Virus record (IMG/VR): IMGVR_UViG_3300033273_000833
Coordinates: 32,001 to 96,000 of that record
Length of the DNA stretch: 64,000 nucleotides
Reading direction: 5' to 3' (one strand)
DNA from: a virus
Lineage: Duplodnaviria; Caudoviricetes
Every line of letters begins with the position of its first letter. Within the stretch, counting starts at the first letter, position 1. The notes under the pieces are model-generated. The model did no database searches and was not told where the DNA came from. It was given only the letters and a program-made list of their open reading frames with translations. Both the position numbers and the translations under genes were made by a program. Positions 30,781 to 45,142 of the stretch are shown in pieces.

Positions 30781-32690
30781 TGAAAAAAGTTTTAATCCAC
30801 AGCAATCATTCGAAAGCCTTTACGGGTTTCGGAAAACACACAAAAAACCTTCTTATCTACCTACAAAAAACAGGTAAGTATGAAATTGTGGAGTTTGCTA
30901 ACGGAAGAAAGTGGTCAGATCCATCTCTTTTAAAAATGCCCTGGAAGACATATGGCTCAGCTCCAGATAGCCAGGTTGTAACGGAAAGGGCTGCTCGAGA
31001 CCCAAAACTAAAAAGACACCTAGGTTATGGAGGGATAATGATCGATGAGGTCATAGAAAAAGAAAAGCCTGATGTTTACATTGGAATAGAAGACATCTGG
31101 GCATTTAGCGGTTACTGGGAAAAGCCTTGGTGGAATAAAATAAATCATGCAGTATGGACAACTCTAGACAGTTTACCAATTCTGCCTGAAGCAGTAAATG
31201 CAGCGCCCAGGATTAAAAATTATTTCGTGTGGGCATCTTTCGCTGAAAAAGCAATGCATAAACTTGGTCACGATCACGTTAAAATGATTAGAGGATCTTT
31301 AGATACAGATCATTTTTTCAAGCTACCCAATCAATCACGAATTCAACTTAGGTCATCTTTTAATATTAAAGAGCAAGACTTTATTATCGGATTTGTTTTT
31401 AGAAACCAATTAAGAAAAAGCGTCCCAAATCTGCTCGATGGCTTTAAAATATTTAGAGAAAAAAATCCAACTTCTAACGCAAAATTACTTTTGCATACTA
31501 ATTGGTCGGAGGGTTGGGATATTCCAAGGTTATTAAAAGAAAAAGAAATTGACTCATCACTCATTCTCACCACATACTATTGCCCGAAATGTAAAAATTA
31601 TGAAGTCAAACCTTTTGTTGGTCAACAGCAAAATTGTAAATTCTGTGGCTCAGAAAAAACTCAAAACACTACAGGAGTTAACAGCGGGGTATCAGAAGAT
31701 CAGCTAAACGAAGTATATAATTTAATGGACGTCTATTGCCATCCTTTTACATCAGGAGGCCAAGAAATACCAATACAAGAAGCCAAACTAACAGAGCTAG
31801 TGACTCTAGTAACTAATTATAGCTGCGGAGAAGATTGTTGCACAGATGAAAGCGGAGGCTTACCGCTCAACTGGAAAGAATACAGAGAACCTGGCACACA
31901 ATTTATTAAAGCTACCACAGATCCATTTAGCATATATAAACAATTAAATAAAGTTTTTAATATGAACAAAAAAGACTTAGAAAAAAGGGGTCAACTCGCA
32001 AGAGATTTTGTTCTAAAAAATTATTCTATAGAAGTTATAGGTAGTCAAGTCGAAGAATTTATTGATTCTTGTGAGGTTGTAAATTATGATTTTGATATCA
32101 AGCCTCACTCAAAAAGGAGGAACAATACTTATCCTTTTCAAAATATTGAAGATGGCCTAGAGTGGGTTAAAGATTTATATAAAAATGTTCTTATTAGAGA
32201 TGTAGAGGATAACGATGAAGGCGTTAAGCATTGGATGCAAAAATTAAAAGAAGGGGCTACCAGAGAAGGTATTTATAATTATTTTATTTCGGTTGCCAAC
32301 AAAGAAAACCAAGAGATTGTAGACTCTCTAGACACTATCTTAAGTGAAGATAAAGAAAAGAAAATAGCTATTGTAATTAATGAAAATGCCACTGAAACAT
32401 TCCTATGTACATCTTTATTGCCGTCAATCAAAAGATTATATCCTGAGCATAATATTTATTTCTTCGCACCAAAACATAATCTAGATATTTTAAAAGGGAA
32501 TGAGTATATATATAAATCACTCCCTGTTTCAGAAGATATTTTTGACTGCATATCTATGGAAAAAGAAAAAGGGGACAATAAATTTTTTGACATCATCTAC
32601 TACCCTTCTGACGCCTCTTCTGGAGCCTTTAGATACTGCCACCAAGGTAGAGACAAAATAGAATACGAAACAAAATATGCACATACTTGA
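30777..32690 (+). CDS. GT-B (GT4-like) glycosyltransferase with Zn ribbon and DUF4214-like domain
   Basis: TGFG, FVFRNQLRK, YNLMDVYCHP..GG.EIP.QEA; CPKC..CKFC; LYKNVLIRD..EG..HW..L..G.TR. Confidence 0.75.
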   Translation: MMKKVLIHSNHSKAFTGFGKHTKNLLIYLQKTGKYEIVEFANGRKWSDPSLLKMPWKTYGSAPDSQVVTERAARDPKLKRHLGYGGIMIDEVIEKEKPDVYIGIEDIWAFSGYWEKPWWNKINHAVWTTLDSLPILPEAVNAAPRIKNYFVWASFAEKAMHKLGHDHVKMIRGSLDTDHFFKLPNQSRIQLRSSFNIKEQDFIIGFVFRNQLRKSVPNLLDGFKIFREKNPTSNAKLLLHTNWSEGWDIPRLLKEKEIDSSLILTTYYCPKCKNYEVKPFVGQQQNCKFCGSEKTQNTTGVNSGVSEDQLNEVYNLMDVYCHPFTSGGQEIPIQEAKLTELVTLVTNYSCGEDCCTDESGGLPLNWKEYREPGTQFIKATTDPFSIYKQLNKVFNMNKKDLEKRGQLARDFVLKNYSIEVIGSQVEEFIDSCEVVNYDFDIKPHSKRRNNTYPFQNIEDGLEWVKDLYKNVLIRDVEDNDEGVKHWMQKLKEGATREGIYNYFISVANKENQEIVDSLDTILSEDKEKKIAIVINENATETFLCTSLLPSIKRLYPEHNIYFFAPKHNLDILKGNEYIYKSLPVSEDIFDCISMEKEKGDNKFFDIIYYPSDASSGAFRYCHQGRDKIEYETKYAHT

Positions 32691-35699: not shown

Positions 35700-36137
35700 A
35701 TGACTGATATTAACCCATATTACATTGCTTACATGCAAGGTGGTGATTACATTATAAATGCAAAAATAGATGATCTTCCTGTACATGTAGAAAATAATAT
35801 ACAACAACCAGGCCAATATTTTATTAAAATTTGGATACAATATAAAAGTACAGAATGGGAAGTAGACTATAATAAGGGATGGGTAGGATGCTTAAACAGC
35901 GACGAATCACACCTAATCAATAAAACTTTTAAAAACGGCGACAACGGCCCAATTAAAATTGCAAAAATTGAACTTGATGATGTTATATTCATAGTTGATT
36001 TTCCTGACCGAGGTTTCAACTTAAAATTTAAAGAAAACTTTTTTAAAAATAATCCAAATATCAGTAAATATTTAGGCGGAATTATATCTAAAGATCAGTT
36101 ACGATATTTAGATGATTATAAACAAATTTTAATTTAA
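35700..36137 (+). CDS. Hypothetical protein
   Basis: 145-aa ORF with no recognised motif. Confidence 0.6.
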   Translation: MTDINPYYIAYMQGGDYIINAKIDDLPVHVENNIQQPGQYFIKIWIQYKSTEWEVDYNKGWVGCLNSDESHLINKTFKNGDNGPIKIAKIELDDVIFIVDFPDRGFNLKFKENFFKNNPNISKYLGGIISKDQLRYLDDYKQILI

Positions 36138-36141
36138 TTAT

Positions 36142-36216
36142 TTATAAAAATATACTTAGTGCTCCAGCTAATAAAATTAAAAATATTATTTGACTAATTT
36201 CAACGTTGTGTATCAT
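36142..36216 (-). CDS. Possible 24-aa membrane micropeptide (not in the ORF track)
   Basis: MIHNVEISQIIFLILLAGALSIFL*, ATGA-coupled to a 15-codon ORF at 36213..36260. Confidence 0.3.
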   Translation of the reverse strand: MIHNVEISQIIFLILLAGALSIFL

Positions 36217-36269
36217 GCTTGTTTTGTTTGTGCGTGGAAGTTGTTTTTGAAGAATTCCATAATGACTTA

Positions 36270-38075
36270 TTAGAAATACTTTAACCATGTTTCACAAATT
36301 TTTAAATCTAGCTCTGTGATGATTTGTTTGTTAAATAGTTTTTGGTAAATGTTTCGCATTAGTTCTTTGTTGAAGTTTTTATCTATTGACTTTTGTCGAG
36401 GTAAAACATCTTCGCCCAACACATCTACAATAGTTTCGTTAGCCAAATACATGGGAACTTCCGACTCGAAGTCTTGCATCAAATCGTGTTCATTCCTTAG
36501 CTGTGTTACATTAGGTGAGGTGTAAGCCATGTTTTTATTGTTGTACTTCAAGAGGGTATTTGCTACGATTCCTTTTAATATATCACAATAACGAAAAGTT
36601 ACAGAACAAGGTATAAGTAAACCTAGAAAGAGGTTTGGATCTAACCAAAAAGTATTTTGAGTATTAAACGGACAGGTATTCTCATTGGATATAATTATTT
36701 TTTTGCCTTTTTCCCATACAACTGCATGATTGCAAACTAAACGAAAAATAGCATCAACATCTGGATCGTTTTCAACGAGACCATTAATTATGGCAACATC
36801 TTCTTTGTTTTTTGAATTGTCAAATTTAAAGTCTGGATGCGGGTTTTGTTTTATATTGGATAACGGGTAACCTCTTGGCCAAATCCAACTGTTATTGGTG
36901 AAGTATTTAAAAATATTGATCCACGAACTATTATTTTCTTTGATAGTTTGTACATTTTTATCGAGTTCAAGAACTGAGTCAAAGTTGTCGTGCGGTATGT
37001 TGTCATCATCAGTCTCGTATATAACCTCGTAACCTTTTTTAATAGCGTAAAGATAACCTAAGTTTTTACGACCATAATGGTTGTAGGGTATCAAATCACA
37101 CAATTCAGGAAACAATTTTTTTTGATTTTCAACATCCAAAAATATACAATCTTCATTTTTATATGTGCCTGGAGTTTTTAGATCACCCACGATGATTACA
37201 TCATATTCTGAATTGCTTATGTGTTTACGAATAGTTTCCGTAGGTTCATTAATGGTGGTTATTATGACGCATTTTTTCTTTTGAAAAATATCATTTAGTA
37301 AATCGAGTAGTTTTGGGTTTTCACCAAATTTAATTGGATGTAAAAATAAATCAAATTTTTTATTAAATCTGTTCTTTATATACGGTGGTTTAGAGGTGAG
37401 ATTTCTGGAACTCCACAGGACAGTTCCACTTATGTTATTATAGTTCTGTCGTTCAGGTTCAATATTCCTAATAATTGTTGGTATTGCTATTTCTAAAAAA
37501 ACACCATAATTTGCGAATAGTTGAAATAAATCAAAAATTTTGCTCGAAAGATATTTTTTTGGTAAATAAAAATAATCAGCAAATTCTTTACAATATTTAT
37601 TAATACCAAAGTCATGATATTCCGCATTTTTTTCTAGTTTAGATATTGCTTTTATGCCGTAAGGGCCGTGCCACCAGCCCCCTTTAAGTGCATCTAGTGC
37701 ATCTAGTGGTTTTATATTAAAACCGTGACCTGTAGCAGAGCAGGCCTCTGTATTGTAAATAATTTTTCCTGTGTCATATAAATTCAATATATTTGTGTTG
37801 ATTATGTTATCATCCATTGTATAGAATAGACCATCGCATTCGTTTATATCGTTCTTGTAATTATCGTACAAATGCTTAAAAATTTTATGAGCAAGGTATC
37901 CACGCTCTATATCAATATAGTTAACATCGTTGTGCAATTTTTCATCGGTATCTTTGGGTGTATCAGAGTATACAATAATTTTTTTAAAATGGCTTTTATA
38001 CAAATCGCAAATTTTTTGCCTGCTGTCTAAGCATTTGCTATAGTTGAATACTAATAGTAATATTGAATTTGTCAT
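36270..38075 (-). CDS. STELLO/DUF288-like two-domain glycosyltransferase
   Basis: IVVGDLKTP, RKNLGYLYAI, IYETDDDN, NDPDVDAIFRL, PFNTQNT, FRYCDI; N-terminal second GT-like domain with YTMDD. Confidence 0.8.
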   Translation of the reverse strand: MTNSILLLVFNYSKCLDSRQKICDLYKSHFKKIIVYSDTPKDTDEKLHNDVNYIDIERGYLAHKIFKHLYDNYKNDINECDGLFYTMDDNIINTNILNLYDTGKIIYNTEACSATGHGFNIKPLDALDALKGGWWHGPYGIKAISKLEKNAEYHDFGINKYCKEFADYFYLPKKYLSSKIFDLFQLFANYGVFLEIAIPTIIRNIEPERQNYNNISGTVLWSSRNLTSKPPYIKNRFNKKFDLFLHPIKFGENPKLLDLLNDIFQKKKCVIITTINEPTETIRKHISNSEYDVIIVGDLKTPGTYKNEDCIFLDVENQKKLFPELCDLIPYNHYGRKNLGYLYAIKKGYEVIYETDDDNIPHDNFDSVLELDKNVQTIKENNSSWINIFKYFTNNSWIWPRGYPLSNIKQNPHPDFKFDNSKNKEDVAIINGLVENDPDVDAIFRLVCNHAVVWEKGKKIIISNENTCPFNTQNTFWLDPNLFLGLLIPCSVTFRYCDILKGIVANTLLKYNNKNMAYTSPNVTQLRNEHDLMQDFESEVPMYLANETIVDVLGEDVLPRQKSIDKNFNKELMRNIYQKLFNKQIITELDLKICETWLKYF

Positions 38076-38091
38076 TTTTTAAATTTCTTCT

Positions 38092-38847
38092 TCATTTAGG
38101 GGAATATTTACGTAAAAAAATGTATTCGGATGATTCTTTTGGTATGTTAGAGAATACTTGCGCCGCTGTCCTAGTTTGATCTATGTTACAATATATAAAT
38201 TGTTCATTGTCTATGTAATCAATACTATTGTATTTTAACGCATTTGCCCAATAATACTCGTCATGCAAAAAGTATTTAACACATTCATTTTTATCATGGG
38301 GAAGATACTTCTTGGCATAATCATCGTTAAAACCAACAAAAATATCGGATTTTAATATTTCAGGTGTTTTTAACTTATAAAAATCTTCTTTTGATATACA
38401 GAAAAACATATTTTGCTTGACCCATTCAACTTCACTAATTTTTGACTTAAATTTAGCAGTCGTTATACTATTGTATTTGCTTGAATTAAATTTAGCTTGT
38501 GATGTTGTTGGGTTTTTTTGTATTTTTATATTAGTATGTTTGTTATTATTTACAAACGATATAGATCGCCTTAGTGGTAGCATATCTCCCGACATTATGT
38601 ATACAACATCACACCCTTTATCAAATAAATCATGAAATAATAAGTTCGTCGCGACAACCAGGCTAGAATGCCCCCATTCGGTTGGTATAGTATTAATACA
38701 ATTTATTGGAAATGGTAATTTATTTTGCACCCTTCCTTTTGCATGCACAGATATTATCGTTTCATGTTTTATAGAATTAAAAAACGCATCAAGATGTGAT
38801 ACATTATGTATTTTATTATATACCATGAAGCCAAAACCAATTTTCAT
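38092..38847 (-). CDS. Core-2/I-branching (GT14-like) glycosyltransferase
   Basis: ISVHAK, TEWGHSSLV.A..LL, MSGDMLPL, HDEYYW. Confidence 0.7.
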   Translation of the reverse strand: MKIGFGFMVYNKIHNVSHLDAFFNSIKHETIISVHAKGRVQNKLPFPINCINTIPTEWGHSSLVVATNLLFHDLFDKGCDVVYIMSGDMLPLRRSISFVNNNKHTNIKIQKNPTTSQAKFNSSKYNSITTAKFKSKISEVEWVKQNMFFCISKEDFYKLKTPEILKSDIFVGFNDDYAKKYLPHDKNECVKYFLHDEYYWANALKYNSIDYIDNEQFIYCNIDQTRTAAQVFSNIPKESSEYIFLRKYSPK

Positions 38848-39521
38848 AACTTGTGGAGGTTAAAAAGTTGTGGATATTTTTCATGCATAATTGTTAAGAC
38901 CATTTCTTCATCATATATAATGAAATTATTATCAACAAATTGTAGGCATTCTATATATTTCTTTGTAAATTCAGGAATTATGTGTCTTGGGAGTTTTATA
39001 ACTTGAGCCAATATCTTTATGGGTGGTAATGTATTTTTTAGTAAACCTTTATATGGTTTATTTGGGAAGTTGTCTGATTTTGCATATTGATTGATGTAAC
39101 ACTTATTGCTATCACTGGAGGTTATTGACTGTAAATTTCTTGTCTTCACGCAATCAACCCACATTAAATAATCAGCATCTGTATAGTCTAAAATTTTTTC
39201 AAAAAGAAGAATTTTGCTTGTCCATATTGTAGCTAACTTTAAAAAAGCATTGGATTTAACGTGCCTCCCAAATTTGAAATAAACTGCATCTCGTGATTTG
39301 CAAAAATTAGTTAAGTTTTTAAGGTACGGCAAACTTGGAAGATTATTAAATTCCAAATCAATTTTATTGGAGAAGCCTACAACCTGATCTTGCGAACATA
39401 TAAAATAATCTAAATTTTTGTTTCGAGCATGTTTTATATGACCTTGTCTGTTTGAAAATTTTGGATTGTTTTCTACATGCCAGTAGGCGGAAAAGGTTGT
39501 TGTTTTTTTCATATTGATCAT
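38844..39521 (-). CDS. HtrL/WlaTC-like glycosyltransferase
   Basis: IWTSKILL.EK, YLMWVDC, YDEEMVLT. Confidence 0.55.
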   Translation of the reverse strand: MINMKKTTTFSAYWHVENNPKFSNRQGHIKHARNKNLDYFICSQDQVVGFSNKIDLEFNNLPSLPYLKNLTNFCKSRDAVYFKFGRHVKSNAFLKLATIWTSKILLFEKILDYTDADYLMWVDCVKTRNLQSITSSDSNKCYINQYAKSDNFPNKPYKGLLKNTLPPIKILAQVIKLPRHIIPEFTKKYIECLQFVDNNFIIYDEEMVLTIMHEKYPQLFNLHKL

Positions 39522-39526
39522 AATTA

Positions 39527-39688
39527 CTATTCTCCAAATTTGTAACCGAAATACTCAATGTGCGTACTACCCCCATATGGGTCTCCGTTGTACCCCGTGT
39601 CCGATCTTCCGAAGACAGCCTCCTCGACTGATTCTCCGCCACATTTTGCAAAATGCACAAATATAATTTTTTGTTTATGACAAATCAC
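39527..39688 (-). pseudogene. Internally deleted sulfotransferase remnant (53 codons)
   Basis: GTG-ICHKQKIIFVHFAKCGGESVE..GGSTH joined directly to IEYFGYKFGE*, i.e. the N- and C-termini of the two intact paralogues. Confidence 0.85.
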
Positions 39689-39690
39689 TA

Positions 39691-40452
39691 TTATCTATGT
39701 TTGCGGTTTCCTAAGCCTGTAATATATTTCCTGTTTTTCTGTATATACAGATTATCATATATCCCTTTGGATTTGGAGATAACAGTGTTTTTATTATAAA
39801 TCCCAGCAATTCCGCTAAACGAGGATATTCCAGAAGGAAATAATATGTCGCATAATATCATGTCATTGATTGCAGTTAGCTCTGGTGTATTGCGATCATA
39901 TACATTTACTCTCATTCCATGAGTGTTAAGCTCCCTTAAATTTATATTTCCGTCAGTATGTATATTTATTGATAAGGGGGGATTTATGTAGTAGTGGATA
40001 TAATCTAAAATATTTTTTAGGTCTTCAGTAGAGCAAGCTCTATATCTAACTGGTTTACAGCCTTTATATTCCTCATTAGCAGTATCTCCTCTTCGCACAT
40101 GTATACAGATATTGGTCTGATTAACTTGTTGAAGAGTGTTTTCTAGAGGGGTGTAGTTTTTAATGATTGATTGCATAAATTTGCTACTAAAATCAGCAAA
40201 TAAGCCACGTTTGATAATTGGAGTATAATTAGCTTCACCGCTAAAGATGGTGATCTTATTTAATTCTTTCTCACAAATGTTATGAAATTTAGAGCCTAGG
40301 TTAAAGACAGACTCGTATGGATCCTCGAGTGGTGTGTGTATATATTCGAAGCCTTCTTGTTTAGCAAAGTAAGCGGTCCATAGTCTGCTATAAATTTGCA
40401 TACCAATCCTATCTGTTTTTTGACAGGTGATATATTTTTTTGCTTTTCTCAT
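39691..40452 (-). CDS. GT11/NodZ-like (fucosyltransferase-like) glycosyltransferase
   Basis: DRIGMQI, ICIHVRRGD, D.ILCD..SSFS..A. Confidence 0.65.
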   Translation of the reverse strand: MRKAKKYITCQKTDRIGMQIYSRLWTAYFAKQEGFEYIHTPLEDPYESVFNLGSKFHNICEKELNKITIFSGEANYTPIIKRGLFADFSSKFMQSIIKNYTPLENTLQQVNQTNICIHVRRGDTANEEYKGCKPVRYRACSTEDLKNILDYIHYYINPPLSINIHTDGNINLRELNTHGMRVNVYDRNTPELTAINDMILCDILFPSGISSFSGIAGIYNKNTVISKSKGIYDNLYIQKNRKYITGLGNRKHR

Positions 40453-40516
40453 TCAGTTAGTAATGTTTGCAAGTTATTTAAGCTGACGAATTCAATATTC
40501 TGGTTGTGGAATAAAT

Positions 40517-41122
40517 TTAATCTCCAAATTCATAATTAAAATACTCAATGTCTTTTGCATATTTTTCTGCAACTATTTGCTTCGTTTCTTCATCGTAATA
40601 TTCGGTGTAGTGTTTTTTGTTTCTCTTGTTCATATGTGGCAATTTCAATCCTTTCATATTCAAGTAATTACACACACACATAAAATTATTTTCAAAATTT
40701 TCAAATCTACCAACAAAATCAACAGCTATATTACCTTCATTATCTTTCAAGAAATCATATTGAGCAACAGAGTGAGATGGATCAAGGTGTATGGGCGATA
40801 GTAGAAACTTTTTTAAGCTTTGTTTTTTTGGTCCGCCGAAATAAAAATAATCTGATATGGCCCTGTCCCATGGGTTTCTAACAAAAGCAAAAGAAAAATA
40901 ATAATTCTTTAATTGTGGGTGAATTTTATAAACCTCACTGATTGTAAGGTGTTGAAGATATTTTCCTGTATACTCATCCCTGCCAAGCAATAATTGCTTG
41001 TCGCAAAAATTATTTGGGAATTTTTTTTTGTCCCATAAATTATAACCAAATGCAGTTTCAATACTAGAACCGCCGCACTTGGGTATATGAATGAAGATAA
41101 ATTTATGCTTATGGCTTATCAT
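40517..41122 (-). CDS. Sulfotransferase (Sulfotransfer_2 family)
   Basis: 5'-PSB FIHIPKCGGSSI; 3'-PB FVRNPWDRAISDY; FVGRFEN; KDIEYFNYEF. Confidence 0.9.
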   Translation of the reverse strand: MISHKHKFIFIHIPKCGGSSIETAFGYNLWDKKKFPNNFCDKQLLLGRDEYTGKYLQHLTISEVYKIHPQLKNYYFSFAFVRNPWDRAISDYFYFGGPKKQSLKKFLLSPIHLDPSHSVAQYDFLKDNEGNIAVDFVGRFENFENNFMCVCNYLNMKGLKLPHMNKRNKKHYTEYYDEETKQIVAEKYAKDIEYFNYEFGD

Positions 41123-41142
41123 TGTACTGAATAATATACACC

Positions 41143-41784
41143 TTATTTTAACCAGCTTCCATTCCAGTGGTGAACCGCATAAGCTTCAGGATGCGTTTTG
41201 GAAAAATCTTCTTCCCTACGAAACTTTTCTTGCCAATAGTAAGGGTATACAGTTTTCTTAAGAGAATCGCGACCATCTGGCATTCCTATTTCGTGTCCTA
41301 ATTTTTCGGTTATGTATGCTGGTCCATATTTATAATCAGAGTTTTCTTTATGGCCATGAGATTTTTTTCTCGAAGGTAGTCCGTCTATCAAGCGTTTTAC
41401 ATCTCTATTATGCTTGGAGGCTCCAAAAAAAGCTCCGCATATTTTTTTATGTTCTTGATGAAATAAAACAATTTCTTTTTGTTCAAAGAGAGGATTTATA
41501 TTTTTTAAGCATTCAAAGTCGGTATCAATATACAATCCTCCAAACTGATAAAGGATTTCAAACCTTAAGATATCAGATTTTTCAGAAAAATTTTCGCAAC
41601 TCTCTAGAATTTCAGGGTAGGTAATTTTTAAATTATCTTTTATTTTTTTATCGTCCCAAAGAATATGTATCCATTCGGGGTTTTTACTTTTCCATGTACC
41701 TTGCCAGTATAACTCTTGTTTTGATAATGAACTTTCGCCCATATGTATTTGATGAAATATTTTTGGTATTATTGAATTTCTCAT
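41143..41784 (-). CDS. GT32 (DXD, OCH1-like) glycosyltransferase
   Basis: IPKIFHQ, KSDILRFEILYQFGGLYIDTD, AVHHWNGSW. Confidence 0.9.
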   Translation of the reverse strand: MRNSIIPKIFHQIHMGESSLSKQELYWQGTWKSKNPEWIHILWDDKKIKDNLKITYPEILESCENFSEKSDILRFEILYQFGGLYIDTDFECLKNINPLFEQKEIVLFHQEHKKICGAFFGASKHNRDVKRLIDGLPSRKKSHGHKENSDYKYGPAYITEKLGHEIGMPDGRDSLKKTVYPYYWQEKFRREEDFSKTHPEAYAVHHWNGSWLK

Positions 41785-41786
41785 TT

Positions 41787-42371
41787 TTATTCTCCAAATT
41801 TATACCCAAAATACTCAATGTCCTTTGCGTATTTTTCCGCAACAAGTTGACGAGTTTCATCATCGTAATATTTTGTGTAATGGGTGGTTTCTGTTTTGTA
41901 ATTGTGTGGTAGTGTTTTTCCAGAAATACCTATATTTCTACAAACATTATTGAAGTCTTCGTGTAAATTTTCAAATCTTCCTATAAAATCCATTTGTTCA
42001 AGTGGTTTTAATATTTTCATGTAATCGTATCTGTGATATGGATCTCCTACATTGCTACTAAAAAATTTTTTTAAAAAACATTTAAAAGTTGTTCCGTGAT
42101 AAAATTTTTTGACTTTTTTTAGTGGGTATTTGTGTGTTGAATTTGTAAACCATTTAAACTCTGAAACCATTTTATCGTAAGGGTTTCTTACAAACGCAAA
42201 CTTATAATAATTTTTATACTTATCCAACTTCAGAACCTCTGCATGGGTCGTGTGAGTGTGACCATTAAAAAAGAATTCAAAATCTTGCAAGTATCTTTCC
42301 ATGCTTGTGCCCGCACACTTCGGTATATGAATAAATACAGTTTTATGTTTATCACTTATCATTTTTATCAA
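41787..42371 (-). CDS. Sulfotransferase (Sulfotransfer_2 family)
   Basis: FIHIPKCAGTSM; FVRNPYDKMVSEF; FIGRFEN; KDIEYFGYKF. Confidence 0.9.
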   Translation of the reverse strand: MIKMISDKHKTVFIHIPKCAGTSMERYLQDFEFFFNGHTHTTHAEVLKLDKYKNYYKFAFVRNPYDKMVSEFKWFTNSTHKYPLKKVKKFYHGTTFKCFLKKFFSSNVGDPYHRYDYMKILKPLEQMDFIGRFENLHEDFNNVCRNIGISGKTLPHNYKTETTHYTKYYDDETRQLVAEKYAKDIEYFGYKFGE

Positions 42372-43183
42372 ATTTTGTTTTCTTTCTTCATAAGAGTTTC
42401 GTCCTTTACCTCTGGATGGTCACTGCTTAATAAATGTTGCAATGTATAATCTGAATACCAATTATTTAATTTTATTTTTTTTTCACAGTTTTCTTTGGAT
42501 ATTATTCTATAATGGTAGCACAACAAAAATCCAGTCTCAATATCTACCTCACGTAAATTATCATAAAACGGATTTAATTCACTTGGTTGGTTGCCAACTC
42601 CGTCGCGAATTTGCTCTGGAGTTCCCATGTGTTCACATGGATGATGGTCTTTTATCTTTGTAAAATATGTTGGTTTAAAAATACATTTAACTTCAATTTT
42701 TTCATAACGACATCTAAACTTGTGAATTTTGTGTGGATGTTTTTTATCATGATTCCACCTATAAGTTATTTCATTTAAAATGCTTTTTGGATTTTTTTTC
42801 AAGGAATTGCAAGACATCATCACCCAAGGTACTTTTATGCAATGGGCGTCCTTGAAAGTTGTTTGTAATTCATCCCTAATAGTTTTATTGAGATTTTTCT
42901 TTGTAACTATAAACTCATCAATGTCCACATATATTACCCACTCGTAATTATCCTTAAGTTTATCCACCCAATTTAAAATATAATTGTCCTTTGTAATTTC
43001 CTTTTCAAAGAAAATGTTTATGTTTTCTTTATTTAACAATTCATCATATATGGATTTATCTTCGGAATCGTCATCTATTATATTAATTTCGTCAACTCCT
43101 TGACTTAGATAATGATTGCAAAACTCTGCAACAAAAAACTCATCTTTACAACGAGCTATTAATCCTAAAAATTTTTTGTGCAT
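42368..43183 (-). CDS. GT2-like/GT92-like glycosyltransferase
   Basis: ARCKDE..AEF..HY..GVD...IDDDS, WVIYVDIDEFI, KCIF. Confidence 0.75.
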   Translation of the reverse strand: MHKKFLGLIARCKDEFFVAEFCNHYLSQGVDEINIIDDDSEDKSIYDELLNKENINIFFEKEITKDNYILNWVDKLKDNYEWVIYVDIDEFIVTKKNLNKTIRDELQTTFKDAHCIKVPWVMMSCNSLKKNPKSILNEITYRWNHDKKHPHKIHKFRCRYEKIEVKCIFKPTYFTKIKDHHPCEHMGTPEQIRDGVGNQPSELNPFYDNLREVDIETGFLLCYHYRIISKENCEKKIKLNNWYSDYTLQHLLSSDHPEVKDETLMKKENKI

Positions 43184-43189
43184 TGACTC

Positions 43190-43993
43190 TTATTCAGGTC
43201 TTTTGCCTAAAGGTTTTCCATCTTGACCAATTTCTCCAGCCCTAATTTTGGTTGCAGAAACATTTTGAAGCTCTTTACTTAATTCAAGCTGCTCAATGTT
43301 ATATCCTACGCCTCTACCATAAAATACATCTGTAATATTTGGAAGCTCAACAACTTTAATTTTATTCCCAAACTCAATGCATGCAGAATGAATTTCTGCT
43401 TTAACTTTTTCAAAATTATATGGATTCTTTTCGTCAATTCCGCCGACATCTCTTAAAGCAATGCAGCATTGCCCAGTTCTTTTAATCGCTTCAGCAACTA
43501 ATGTTTTATGGCCAACATGAAAAGGTTGATACCTCCCAATTAATAAAGCTGTTGGAGCTTGATTATCCCAGGATTCTGTTTCATTTAATTTATTCAATAC
43601 TCTTTCAACCCATTCTTCTGGAGATCCGTCAGTTAGTCTTACGTCGTAATTCAAAGGTCTTTCAAACATTTTATTAGTGTCTTCGTATCTACCTTCCATA
43701 ATCCTATCGACCCATACAACAAAATCAGCAGCAAATGCTTTTCTTGTTTCTTGGGTAGGGCATACAAAATCGGCGACAGAGTAACCTCCGCCCATTGAAG
43801 ACCAAGAACATAGTTTACCCATTCTTTCGGCATGCTTAATTCTATCTTCTTCCGAAAACCCTAGCTCTGAATATATATCTTGCCTAACGGCATCAGCGTT
43901 AAACCAGGCTGCGTTAATTTTTTTTACTAAAATCTCAGCCAACGTTGTTTTGCCAGATCCTGGGAGCCCCATAATCAAAATTTTTCTTTTCAT
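43190..43993 (-). CDS. Fusion: adenylylsulfate-kinase-like domain plus HIGH-superfamily nucleotidyltransferase
   Basis: GLPGSGKTT, NADAVR, LGFSEEDR, ADFVCP; then IGRYQPFHVGH, NPY, VSATKIR. Confidence 0.8.
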   Translation of the reverse strand: MKRKILIMGLPGSGKTTLAEILVKKINAAWFNADAVRQDIYSELGFSEEDRIKHAERMGKLCSWSSMGGGYSVADFVCPTQETRKAFAADFVVWVDRIMEGRYEDTNKMFERPLNYDVRLTDGSPEEWVERVLNKLNETESWDNQAPTALLIGRYQPFHVGHKTLVAEAIKRTGQCCIALRDVGGIDEKNPYNFEKVKAEIHSACIEFGNKIKVVELPNITDVFYGRGVGYNIEQLELSKELQNVSATKIRAGEIGQDGKPLGKRPE

Positions 43994-44001
43994 ATCTCTG
44001 T

Positions 44002-44007
44002 TTACAC
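44002..44007 (-). promoter_or_regulatory. GTGTAA putative late-promoter motif heading the glycan operon
   Basis: GTGTAA-N8-ATG(43993) on the minus strand. Confidence 0.7.
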
Positions 44008-44015
44008 GCTTTTTT

Positions 44016-44345
44016 TTATTTTATCTTCTTATTTATTAAACATGCTAGACTAGGCACGGAAAACATACTAAAGCCAGCAAAAATCATATTTAAATTAAAA
44101 AACCAACAACAAAACAAAGAAGCAAGCAAAGACAACCAAGTGCCATAACATAAGGGACAGCTCAATAGTTCTCCCAGCTTACCCCAATTATCAATTATAT
44201 AATCATGCAAATCATCTAATGTATATATTTTTTCTTTTATAAACAATGACAATATATATACTTTTAAATTAGTATACTCCAATACGGCAATAATATTAGA
44301 AACAAACAAAATGCAAGCTAAATAAATTAATAAATAATTAATCAT
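44016..44345 (-). CDS. DUF1360-like membrane protein
   Basis: GELLSCPLCYGTW flanked by TM segments; start moved to the ATG overlapping the upstream gene's end. Confidence 0.6.
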   Translation of the reverse strand: MINYLLIYLACILFVSNIIAVLEYTNLKVYILSLFIKEKIYTLDDLHDYIIDNWGKLGELLSCPLCYGTWLSLLASLFCCWFFNLNMIFAGFSMFSVPSLACLINKKIK

Positions 44346-44517
44346 CTTGAATGCGAGGAAGAATGAACGATGTGTATTTCCTACGCACACTAGCTTTTCT
44401 GCACGAAGAACATCCTCCAGGTTTATTCACTTCTGCCAAGTAATCTTTTTTCATTTGCTGACAACCATCAAAGTTTATTTCTTGACAAGTTTGCTCGGGC
44501 GTTTTATTTAAATCCAT
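44338..44517 (-). CDS. Small Cys-containing protein (CSSC); start uncertain
   Basis: C..C..GGCSSCRK; coupled to the downstream gene. Confidence 0.5.
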   Translation of the reverse strand: MDLNKTPEQTCQEINFDGCQQMKKDYLAEVNKPGGCSSCRKASVRRKYTSFILPRIQDD

Positions 44518-44567
44518 AAATATTCTTATGAGATTCATTTGGGCTGGTGTTTTTGGATTCATTTTTC

Positions 44568-44596
44568 TTGACAAATTTGATTACATATATTATACT
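44568..44596 (+). promoter_or_regulatory. sigma70 promoter (leaderless geometry)
   Basis: TTGACA-N17-TATACT-N6-ATG(44603). Confidence 0.8.
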
Positions 44597-44602
44597 TATA
44601 AT

Positions 44603-45142
44603 ATGAAAAATATTCTAGAAAAAACTAAAACTTATCTGGTTGGCCACATGCAATACATTAGTGGGAGGAACTGGCGAGAAGAAGTTACTCAAAAGCTTTC
44701 TGATATTAACATTACATGCTTCGACCCTTATAAAAAACCCTTTATTAAAGATGTCGAAGAAGATGAGGTCTCAAGACAAGAAATGGAAACTTGGATGAAA
44801 ACCAAGCAGTACGACAGAGTAACGGAAAGAATGAAAATGGTAAGAGCTTATGACCTAAATTTAGTTGATCGTAGCGATTTTATCATCGCTCATCTAGTTC
44901 CTAGCGTTGCATCTTGGGGTAGTGCCGAAGAAATTGTTACTGCGGTAAGAATGAAAAAACCTATCTTTATCAGCATGGAAGGCGGTAAGTCCCAAACTCC
45001 ACTCTGGATGCTAGGAATGCTTCCTCATAAATACATTTACAATTCAGTAGAAGAAATAGTAGATATGCTTTTTGCTATCAATGAAGGGTCAAAAACTATA
45101 GACTCAGATCGCTGGCGCCTATTAAGACATGAATTTAGATAG
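44603..45142 (+). CDS. Nucleoside 2-deoxyribosyltransferase-like protein
   Basis: TYLVG, WRE, FDP, DL..VDRSDFIIA, GSAEE; start moved downstream of the promoter. Confidence 0.65.
   Translation: MKNILEKTKTYLVGHMQYISGRNWREEVTQKLSDINITCFDPYKKPFIKDVEEDEVSRQEMETWMKTKQYDRVTERMKMVRAYDLNLVDRSDFIIAHLVPSVASWGSAEEIVTAVRMKKPIFISMEGGKSQTPLWMLGMLPHKYIYNSVEEIVDMLFAINEGSKTIDSDRWRLLRHEFR

Follow-up and report, generated by a model that had tools for sequence, protein, structure and literature searches.

Where does a phage that carries sulfotransferase genes obtain its activated sulfate? The question is raised by a 64,000-nt stretch of DNA, here called the window, which covers positions 32,001 to 96,000 of the IMG/VR record IMGVR_UViG_3300033273_000833 (Duplodnaviria; Caudoviricetes). 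The source record is an uncultured marine phage of 203,067 bp, with about 33% G+C and a CheckV completeness of 100%. On the minus strand of the window, an open reading frame (ORF) of 804 nt at positions 43190-43993 encodes a 267-aa protein, in which a P-loop domain similar to adenosine 5'-phosphosulfate (APS) kinase, the N-domain, is fused to an HxGH nucleotidyltransferase, the C-domain. An earlier note on this DNA had proposed that the protein may make 3'-phosphoadenosine 5'-phosphosulfate (PAPS) on its own. Comparative evidence now supports such a role as a likely one: the linkage of the family to sulfotransferases, the presence of the C-domain gene in the position of sat in SAR11 genomes, and the APS kinases that neighbour it elsewhere.

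The gene probably encodes a compact, self-sufficient mini PAPS synthase, as far as sequence comparison and structural models indicate, and the narrower claim that its kinase domain, if nothing more, serves to supply PAPS is very likely. In the proposed mechanism, the C-domain would adenylylate sulfate, converting ATP and sulfate to APS and pyrophosphate, and the N-domain would phosphorylate the 3'-OH of APS to give PAPS, which is a well-supported step. The PAPS would feed two downstream sulfotransferases, and in the infected cell these enzymes and the operon's glycosyltransferases would jointly assemble a sulfated glycan. Fusion of the two domains would pull the unfavourable first step through the immediate consumption of APS. 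In SAR11, a stand-alone C-domain encoded beside aprMBA would turn the APS formed in sulfite oxidation into ATP and sulfate. We consider it rather likely that nucleotidyltransferases of this type (120-130 residues, with the motif YGRDVGY) arose from NadM-type NMNAT and form a minimal class of ATP sulfurylase that has gone unrecognised; the phage fusion would then be a host-independent supply of PAPS, and the stand-alone SAR11 protein the "missing" sulfurylase.

Domains of the fusion protein

All motifs quoted in the earlier note are present in the fusion and could be assigned to residues from the translation. Besides the P-loop (Table 1), the N-domain contains DAVR (residues 34-37), LGFSEEDR (44-51) and FVCP (76-79). 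Its match to Pfam APS_kinase (PF01583) scored 46.6 bits against a cut-off of 21.1 and spanned only profile positions 5-91 of 152, which points to loss or alteration of the lid and the C-terminal half, and the NCBIfam cysC equivalog model TIGR00455 gave 42.3 bits, under its cut-off of 138.7. The best PDB sequence matches of the N-domain are APS kinases, with 7yq0 at the top (E 2e-7). Conservation was computed over 57 homologues that are 33-87% identical to the phage protein. In the P-loop, K15 is invariant, and G9, L10, G14 and T16 occur in at least 90% of the sequences; further along, R37 is invariant and D34, F46, R51 and P79 reach at least 90%. By alignment, R37 corresponds to the Arg of DGDxxR in APS kinases, F46 to the Phe of LGF and R51 to the Arg of DR, and P79 lies in the SP motif.

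An AlphaFold2 model of the 267-aa protein, built from the 57 homologues, had a predicted local distance difference test score (pLDDT) of 92.6. When it was searched against the PDB with Foldseek, the 49 best matches were all APS kinases or APS-kinase domains (best E 9.4e-10; template modelling score by target up to 0.77). The lid of APS kinases, RDxKGLY...FTGI, is replaced here by EGRYEDTNKMFERP. Only about 14 residues separate the VWVD strand from the F..P motif, versus about 30 in APS kinases, in agreement with the earlier observation that most of the lid is missing, and the Pfam and NCBIfam matches both end ahead of this segment. As judged from its sequence and model, the N-domain is a divergent, trimmed APS kinase and not a CysC equivalog. 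Short APS-kinase domains of this kind frequently occur as fusions with a DUF4118 membrane domain, which may precede or follow them, with or without a nucleotidyltransferase (seven metagenomic proteins).

The C-domain, of about 125 aa, matches Pfam CTP_transf_like (PF01467) at 25.6 bits against a cut-off of 21; PF01747, the family of Sat, was not among the Pfam matches of the 267-aa protein. In the C-domain alignment, G153, Q156, H159 and H162 of the nucleotide-binding signature are invariant and R154, P157 and G161 occur in at least 90% of the sequences; in the full-length alignment, all seven reach at least 90%. A profile of 57 C-domains matched archaeal NMNAT 1f9a (E 2.7e-11) and NadM. The alignment to 1f9a covers NMNAT residues 3-75 and 109-133, and the stretch between them is without counterpart. 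TIGR01527, the model for NadM-type NMNAT, gave 20.2-22 bits, under its cut-off of 181.2. In the ESM Atlas, clusters of the C-domain family are named merely "putative cytidyltransferase".

Similar relationships were seen in the fold. A model of the C-domain only (pLDDT 92.3) was matched by Foldseek to NMNAT, NadM and phosphopantetheine adenylyltransferase (PPAT), mostly across the first 75-80 residues. ATP sulfurylase was absent from the 50 best Foldseek matches; one was listed by VIA-align, in which the model was compared with 48,161 chains. There, NMNAT reached Z 10.4, PPAT and NadM 10.3 each, NadR 8.9 and cytidylyltransferases 8-8.6. The ATP sulfurylase of Thermus (1v47_B) ranked sixth with Z 8.7 and a root-mean-square deviation of 3.0, within about 2 Z units of NMNAT and PPAT, and none of the other five leading matches had an alignment as long as its 117 residues; for the sulfurylases of yeast, human and plants, Z was 6.2-6.7. 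The modelled fold puts the C-domain in the HIGH superfamily without singling out a substrate.

Because HxGH and ISxTxxR are both kept, the C-domain should be an active nucleoside triphosphate:anion nucleotidyltransferase. R181 and YGRDVGY are specific to the family and stand in place of the missing NMNAT stretch; NMNAT presumably has SGN where the C-domain has YGRDVGY, and IGSAQ where it has (V/A)xRD. The acceptor pocket of the C-domain would be small and basic. HVGH, YGRGVGY and VSATKIR follow each other in a Sat-like order, although such motifs are superfamily-wide. We take the motifs of Sat to be HxxH, a GRD-type loop, a terminal ISGTxxR-like motif and the QxRN sulfate motif, of which QxRN is absent from the C-domain.

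Genomic settings in bacteria and phages

One genome per prokaryote species was scanned with a 12-sequence alignment of the family. It was found mainly in Pelagibacteraceae (SAR11), and also in SAR86, soil Alphaproteobacteria, Peribacteria and one metagenome-assembled genome (MAG) of Flavobacteriaceae. In SAR11 the family mostly consists of two overlapping genes, an N gene of about 136 aa and a C gene of 124-135 aa, and this overlap, a classic sign, suggests that the two parts work together. At three SAR11 loci (L107, L108 and L113), the two are instead separated by a gene of 754-778 aa.

Among 201 SAR11 genomes, the family is present in 145, AprA in 121, Sat (PF01747) in 8 and Sulfotransfer_2 in 10. 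The family occurs in 117 of the 121 AprA-positive genomes versus 28 of the 80 AprA-negative ones, in a comparison of the lists made by hand and uncorrected for relatedness. The gene order at apr-linked loci is an MFS gene, then the N and C genes, the C gene alone or the fusion, followed by a TENA-like gene, an aprM-like gene, aprB and aprA. Seven apr regions with this order were fetched because the family and apr coordinates looked close. A separate sample of 20 aprA loci was taken in the order of the AprA hit list, blind to adjacency; 18 were informative, and the C-domain gene was inside the apr cluster in nine of them and absent in the other nine.

In sulfur oxidisers, sat usually lies beside the apr genes. 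ATP sulfurylase is missing from most SAR11 (PMC10356861). The apr-linked SAR11 C-domain protein and the phage C-domain share 48% identity and the identical motif set, and between the phage protein and an apr-linked SAR11 fusion the identity is 51% across 259 residues. One apr-linked C-domain protein, of 130 aa, is encoded at L178:6666-7058 on the minus strand. Such identity, together with the G+C content of the phage, would fit a SAR11-type host or gene exchange with one.

The apr clusters themselves differ in content. In those aprMBA clusters that have no C-domain gene, the MFS gene and aprM stand about 3 kb apart (L187-L189, L191, L192, L195-L198). In the one such locus that was annotated, a 132-aa HIT-domain gene (L196:5129-5527) lies just upstream of aprM, after pabB/pabA/pabC-like genes. 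HIT enzymes are able to break down APS, and this gene may be an alternative way out of APS. A gene of the TENA/THI-4/PQQC family, of about 223 aa (L181:3209-3880), neighbours the N and C genes and in the usual arrangement separates them from aprM. It is present in most apr clusters that bear the C-domain (L178-L183, L185, L193, L194, L199, L201-L204) and was not found in L184 and L186.

In the Flavobacteriaceae MAG, the order is a full-length CysC (97 bits, profile positions 2-150 of 152), the C-domain, a pyruvate-kinase barrel and Sulfotransfer_3; the barrel gene encodes 335 aa (L144:1716-2723). At three Peribacteria loci, the C-domain gene lies directly upstream of an APS kinase of 172-182 aa, with overlap in two of them, and at one of the three a gene with a sub-threshold Sulfotransfer_2 match precedes it. 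The neighbours of the fusion in soil Alphaproteobacteria gave only faint, sub-threshold sulfotransferase matches (E 0.004-0.007). In at least four unrelated settings, the C-domain thus accompanies enzymes that produce, consume or phosphorylate APS, and sulfate adenylylation or its reverse is the sole step of that pathway left without an enzyme. Because the SAR11 C-domain gene occupies the position of sat and APS kinases neighbour the C-domain elsewhere, a role as sulfate or APS adenylyltransferase gains independent support.

In phages, the partners are sulfotransferases. When 45 related viral records were searched over their entire length, 28 proved to carry Sulfotransfer_2 (PF03567), some with as many as 11 copies; among the 12 with a completeness of 90% or more it was found in 10, and the 14 control bacteria had none. 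In related phages with up to 11 matches per genome, some of the matches lie in tandem multi-domain ORFs of 400-657 aa. The earlier note had set its proposal against the prospect that homologues show no linkage to sulfotransferases. When all ORFs within 10 kb of the fusion were clustered across 80 viral loci, a sulfotransferase was instead the commonest neighbour family (25 of 80 loci), in relatives at 42% identity it is the gene directly downstream of the fusion, and sulfotransferases are also present in distant cultured phages.

Of 50,697 GenBank phage records, 21 match the 267-aa protein, only three match the sulfotransferase of the window and two match both: DLP_6, with the full fusion, and LR756500, with a canonical APS kinase (E 5e-56). 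DLP_6 and the Ralstonia phage phiRSL1 carry Sulfotransfer_2. In Sano/Salvovirus phages of Xylella, Xanthomonas and Stenotrophomonas, the order is a Sulfotransfer_4-like gene, a NADAR-domain gene and the fusion; the first of these encodes 192 aa, lies two genes upstream of the fusion and scores 26.2 bits against a cut-off of 22.8. This trio was located in Stenotrophomonas phage Bhz60 (L089:2978-4741) and Xylella phage Bacata (L005:4978-6741). In Bhz60, a DNA methyltransferase gene follows the trio, and cysteine-dioxygenase-like and MazG-like genes lie upstream. Sulfotransfer_1 and Sulfotransfer_3 gave nothing above the cut-off in five cultured phages. In phiRSL1, the cluster ORF238-ORF232 (L007:5001-10426) starts with the APS-kinase-like ORF238 and a gene matching a TET-associated glycosyltransferase (PF20691, E 9.5e-12), after which come two sugar-nucleotide transferases and then the sulfotransferase. 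This cluster may hint at a sulfated sugar modification, perhaps of DNA.

Alternative roles of the two domains

Several observations weigh against a self-sufficient PAPS synthase. The caution in the earlier note that the C-domain resembles NadM/NMNAT over ATP sulfurylase was borne out: by sequence and fold, the C-domain is closest to NadM, archaeal NMNAT and PPAT, with Sat sixth in the structural comparison, and no ATP sulfurylase was matched by the 57-sequence C-domain profile among PDB sequences at E<=10. In the N-domain, besides the shortened lid, Ala55 takes the place of the ENxRR Asn in the alignment and is preceded by His or Gln. Seven of the eight Sat-positive SAR11 genomes also carry the family, and no complementarity between the two was found in this group. 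Most SAR11 genomes with an N and C pair contain no Sulfotransfer_2, and use of PAPS is not evident in them; such pairs lie in a betaine/one-carbon island, by enoyl-CoA hydratase and CoA-binding genes. Among viral records chosen for holding a sulfotransferase, 10 of 23 match the family, as does one of the five complete ones. Moreover, phages exist that have the kinase without the C-domain: phiRSL1 has a kinase domain without a recognisable C-domain, a few genes from Sulfotransfer_2 and beside sugar-nucleotide genes; RsoM2USA has the kinase domain alone; and LR756500 combines a sulfotransferase with a canonical APS kinase and no Sat. Host APS can therefore suffice.

These phages, together with the nearness of the C-domain to NadM/NMNAT in profile and fold, are what favours a reading in which only the N-domain serves sulfation, on APS from the host (by CysDN, Sat or AprBA). 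The C-domain would then perform an unrelated, NadM-derived adenylyl transfer, such as nicotinamide mononucleotide to NAD+, and the NAD+ would sustain the infected cell or counter an NAD-depleting defence. A further point for this reading comes from the Sano/Salvovirus phages, where the NADAR-domain gene overlaps the start of the fusion and hints at NAD/ADP-ribose chemistry. Against it, the middle stretch of NMNAT is missing, and the invariant Arg/Gly motif is not a feature of NMNAT. A role in NAD synthesis would leave unexplained both the lone C-domain gene beside aprMBA in SAR11 and the adjacent APS kinases in the Flavobacteriaceae MAG and Peribacteria, and in phages, SAR11 and SAR86 alike the two domains remain associated, either fused or encoded by overlapping genes. 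This division of labour is considered unlikely, with a small chance of being correct. An improbable alternative is that the kinase and nucleotidyltransferase act like HldE, NadR or LicA/LicC and activate a sugar or an alcohol, so that a phosphorylated X-OH becomes an NDP-X donor for the glycosyltransferases of the operon. The gene does head a glycosyltransferase-rich operon, the cytidylyltransferases are among the structural matches of the C-domain, and small PF01467 enzymes (TagD, the C-domain of HldE) produce CDP- or ADP-linked donors. However, the kinase resembles APS kinases specifically and retains both the Phe that stacks on adenine and the two Arg residues for phosphosulfate, and the recurrent partners of the family are sulfotransferases and APS reductase, with no single glycosyltransferase family. 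Least probable is a protein similar to CoA synthase, with the C-domain as PPAT and the N-domain as dephospho-CoA 3'-kinase. PPAT ties with NMNAT structurally, the SAR11 pair is followed by the enoyl-CoA hydratase and CoA-binding genes mentioned above, the dephospho-CoA 3'-kinase step chemically equals the APS kinase reaction, and human COASY follows the same two-step logic. Yet canonical CoaE is present in 186 of the 201 SAR11 genomes irrespective of the pair, so that there is no gap to fill, and the linkage to sulfotransferases and aprMBA would be unaccounted for; the CoA-synthase reading was rejected as the main one on the CoaE count.

The preferred reading, a mini PAPS synthase with a sulfate-adenylylating C-domain, has wider implications. 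If the C-domain adenylylates sulfate, a central step of the sulfur cycle would gain a new family of very small enzymes. This would account for the ability of SAR11, more abundant in the surface ocean than any other bacterial group, to complete AprBA-dependent sulfite oxidation without a known ATP sulfurylase, and large marine phages would bring their own sulfate-activation enzyme for glycan sulfation. Both the reaction and the logic of the fusion are known, and the novelty would lie in the first step, carried out by a different and much smaller enzyme. Because the protein is small and soluble, the claim is directly testable.

Operon features and known systems

The coordinates of the fusion, its motifs and the neighbouring genes are collected in Table 1. 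After the fusion, on the same strand, come the GT2/GT92-like gene, a Sulfotransfer_2 gene, the GT32-like gene, the second Sulfotransfer_2 gene and more glycosyltransferase-like genes, with gaps of -4 to 20 nt. A search of the whole phage genome found two Sulfotransfer_2 genes, both in this operon.

Table 1. Coordinates in the window of the fusion gene, its domains and motifs, and the downstream genes of the operon
Feature	Position	Strand	Basis
Whole gene, 267-aa fusion	43190..43993	-	Translation; Pfam PF01583 + PF01467; AlphaFold2 model, pLDDT 92.6
N-domain, residues 1-140, short APS-kinase-like P-loop kinase	43574..43993	-	PF01583 E 4.7e-12; PDB matches; Foldseek
P-loop GLPGSGKTT (Walker A), residues 9-17	43943..43969	-	Read from sequence; conserved in homologues
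C-domain, residues 141-267, minimal HxGH/ISxTxxR nucleotidyltransferase, candidate sulfate adenylyltransferase	43190..43573	-	Profile, fold, gene context
GRYQPFHVGH, residues 153-162, HxGH nucleotide-binding signature	43508..43537	-	Conserved in homologues
YGRGVGY, residues 225-231, family signature (consensus YGRDVGY)	43301..43321	-	G226, R227, G230 invariant
VSATKIR, residues 245-251, ISxTxxR motif binding ATP phosphates	43241..43261	-	S246 in at least 90%, R251 invariant
GT2/GT92-like glycosyltransferase, next gene in operon	42368..43183	-	PF13704 E 1.9e-12; PF01697 E 1.3e-7
Sulfotransferase 1, 194 aa, presumed PAPS consumer	41787..42371	-	Sulfotransfer_2 PF03567 E 9.7e-19
DXD glycosyltransferase (GT32-like)	41143..41784	-	PF04488 E 6.7e-16
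Sulfotransferase 2, 201 aa, presumed PAPS consumer	40517..41122	-	Sulfotransfer_2 PF03567 E 9.2e-19

The fusion had been described as the first gene of the sulfotransferase operon, which holds for the conserved genes only: a co-directional ORF of 124 aa, predicted to be a membrane protein (44016-44390, minus strand; weak DUF1360 match, E 0.007), lies 22 nt upstream. No counterpart of this ORF was found in the 80 related viral loci, which effectively makes the fusion the leading conserved gene of the run; the ORF may be lineage-specific or no gene. It showed no similarity to the DUF4118 membrane domain that other N-domains are fused to. In a promoter and terminator scan of 35900-44700, promoter-like sites were rarer than in shuffled sequence.

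No Sat was recognised in the complete phage genome, where the single PF01747 match was to another gene (E 0.05), and neither a gene of the CysD/PAPS_reduct family nor a CysQ-type PAP phosphatase was found in that genome. A second, separate CTP_transf_like gene lies outside the window at 126755-127129 (141 aa, 46 bits) and could be the true NMNAT of the phage or a cytidylyltransferase. Fusions of this type are abundant in marine metagenomes: one search gave matches at E<=0.001 for 7455 of 8000 candidates, and a second one gave 2482 cluster representatives. Because thousands of homologues match, the fusion is not a chance product.

No paper describing the family was found in the literature, nor anything relevant on phage APS kinase or sulfotransferase systems; comparison was made with four known systems. 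With CysC (PF01583, TIGR00455; PDB 7yq0, 1m7g, 2ofx), the N-domain shares the P-loop, the DxxR, LGFSxxDR and (S/C)P motifs and the fold, but it matches only the first 91 of the 152 profile positions, its lid is shorter and the Asn of ENxRR is replaced. The C-domain and NadM-type NMNAT (PDB 1f9a, 1ej2, 2qjt) have in common two motifs, GRxQPxHxGH and ISxTxxR, as well as their first three strand-helix units. Unlike NMNAT, it is about 40 residues shorter, without a counterpart of 1f9a residues from about 75 to about 109, and the gene context of its family is that of APS and PAPS rather than NAD; it gave no full-length match including the segment by which NMNAT holds the nicotinamide ring. Sat/MET3 (PF01747; PDB 1v47, 1j70) belongs to the same superfamily, and the SAR11 C-domain gene takes the position of sat beside aprMBA, whereas the C-domain has about a third of the size of Sat, no PUA-like N-domain and no detectable membership of its sequence family.

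Metazoan PAPSS1/2 (PDB 1x6v, 1xjq) likewise combine, in one polypeptide, an N-terminal APS kinase with an adenylyltransferase of the HIGH superfamily. Their kinase domains match that of the phage protein structurally, and the two-step chemistry proposed here equals theirs. PAPSS is a protein of about 620 aa with a Sat-type PF01747 domain, whereas the second domain of the phage protein has about 125 aa and is NadM-like, and the lid of its kinase is shortened. The phage protein may thus work like PAPSS without belonging to the PAPSS family.

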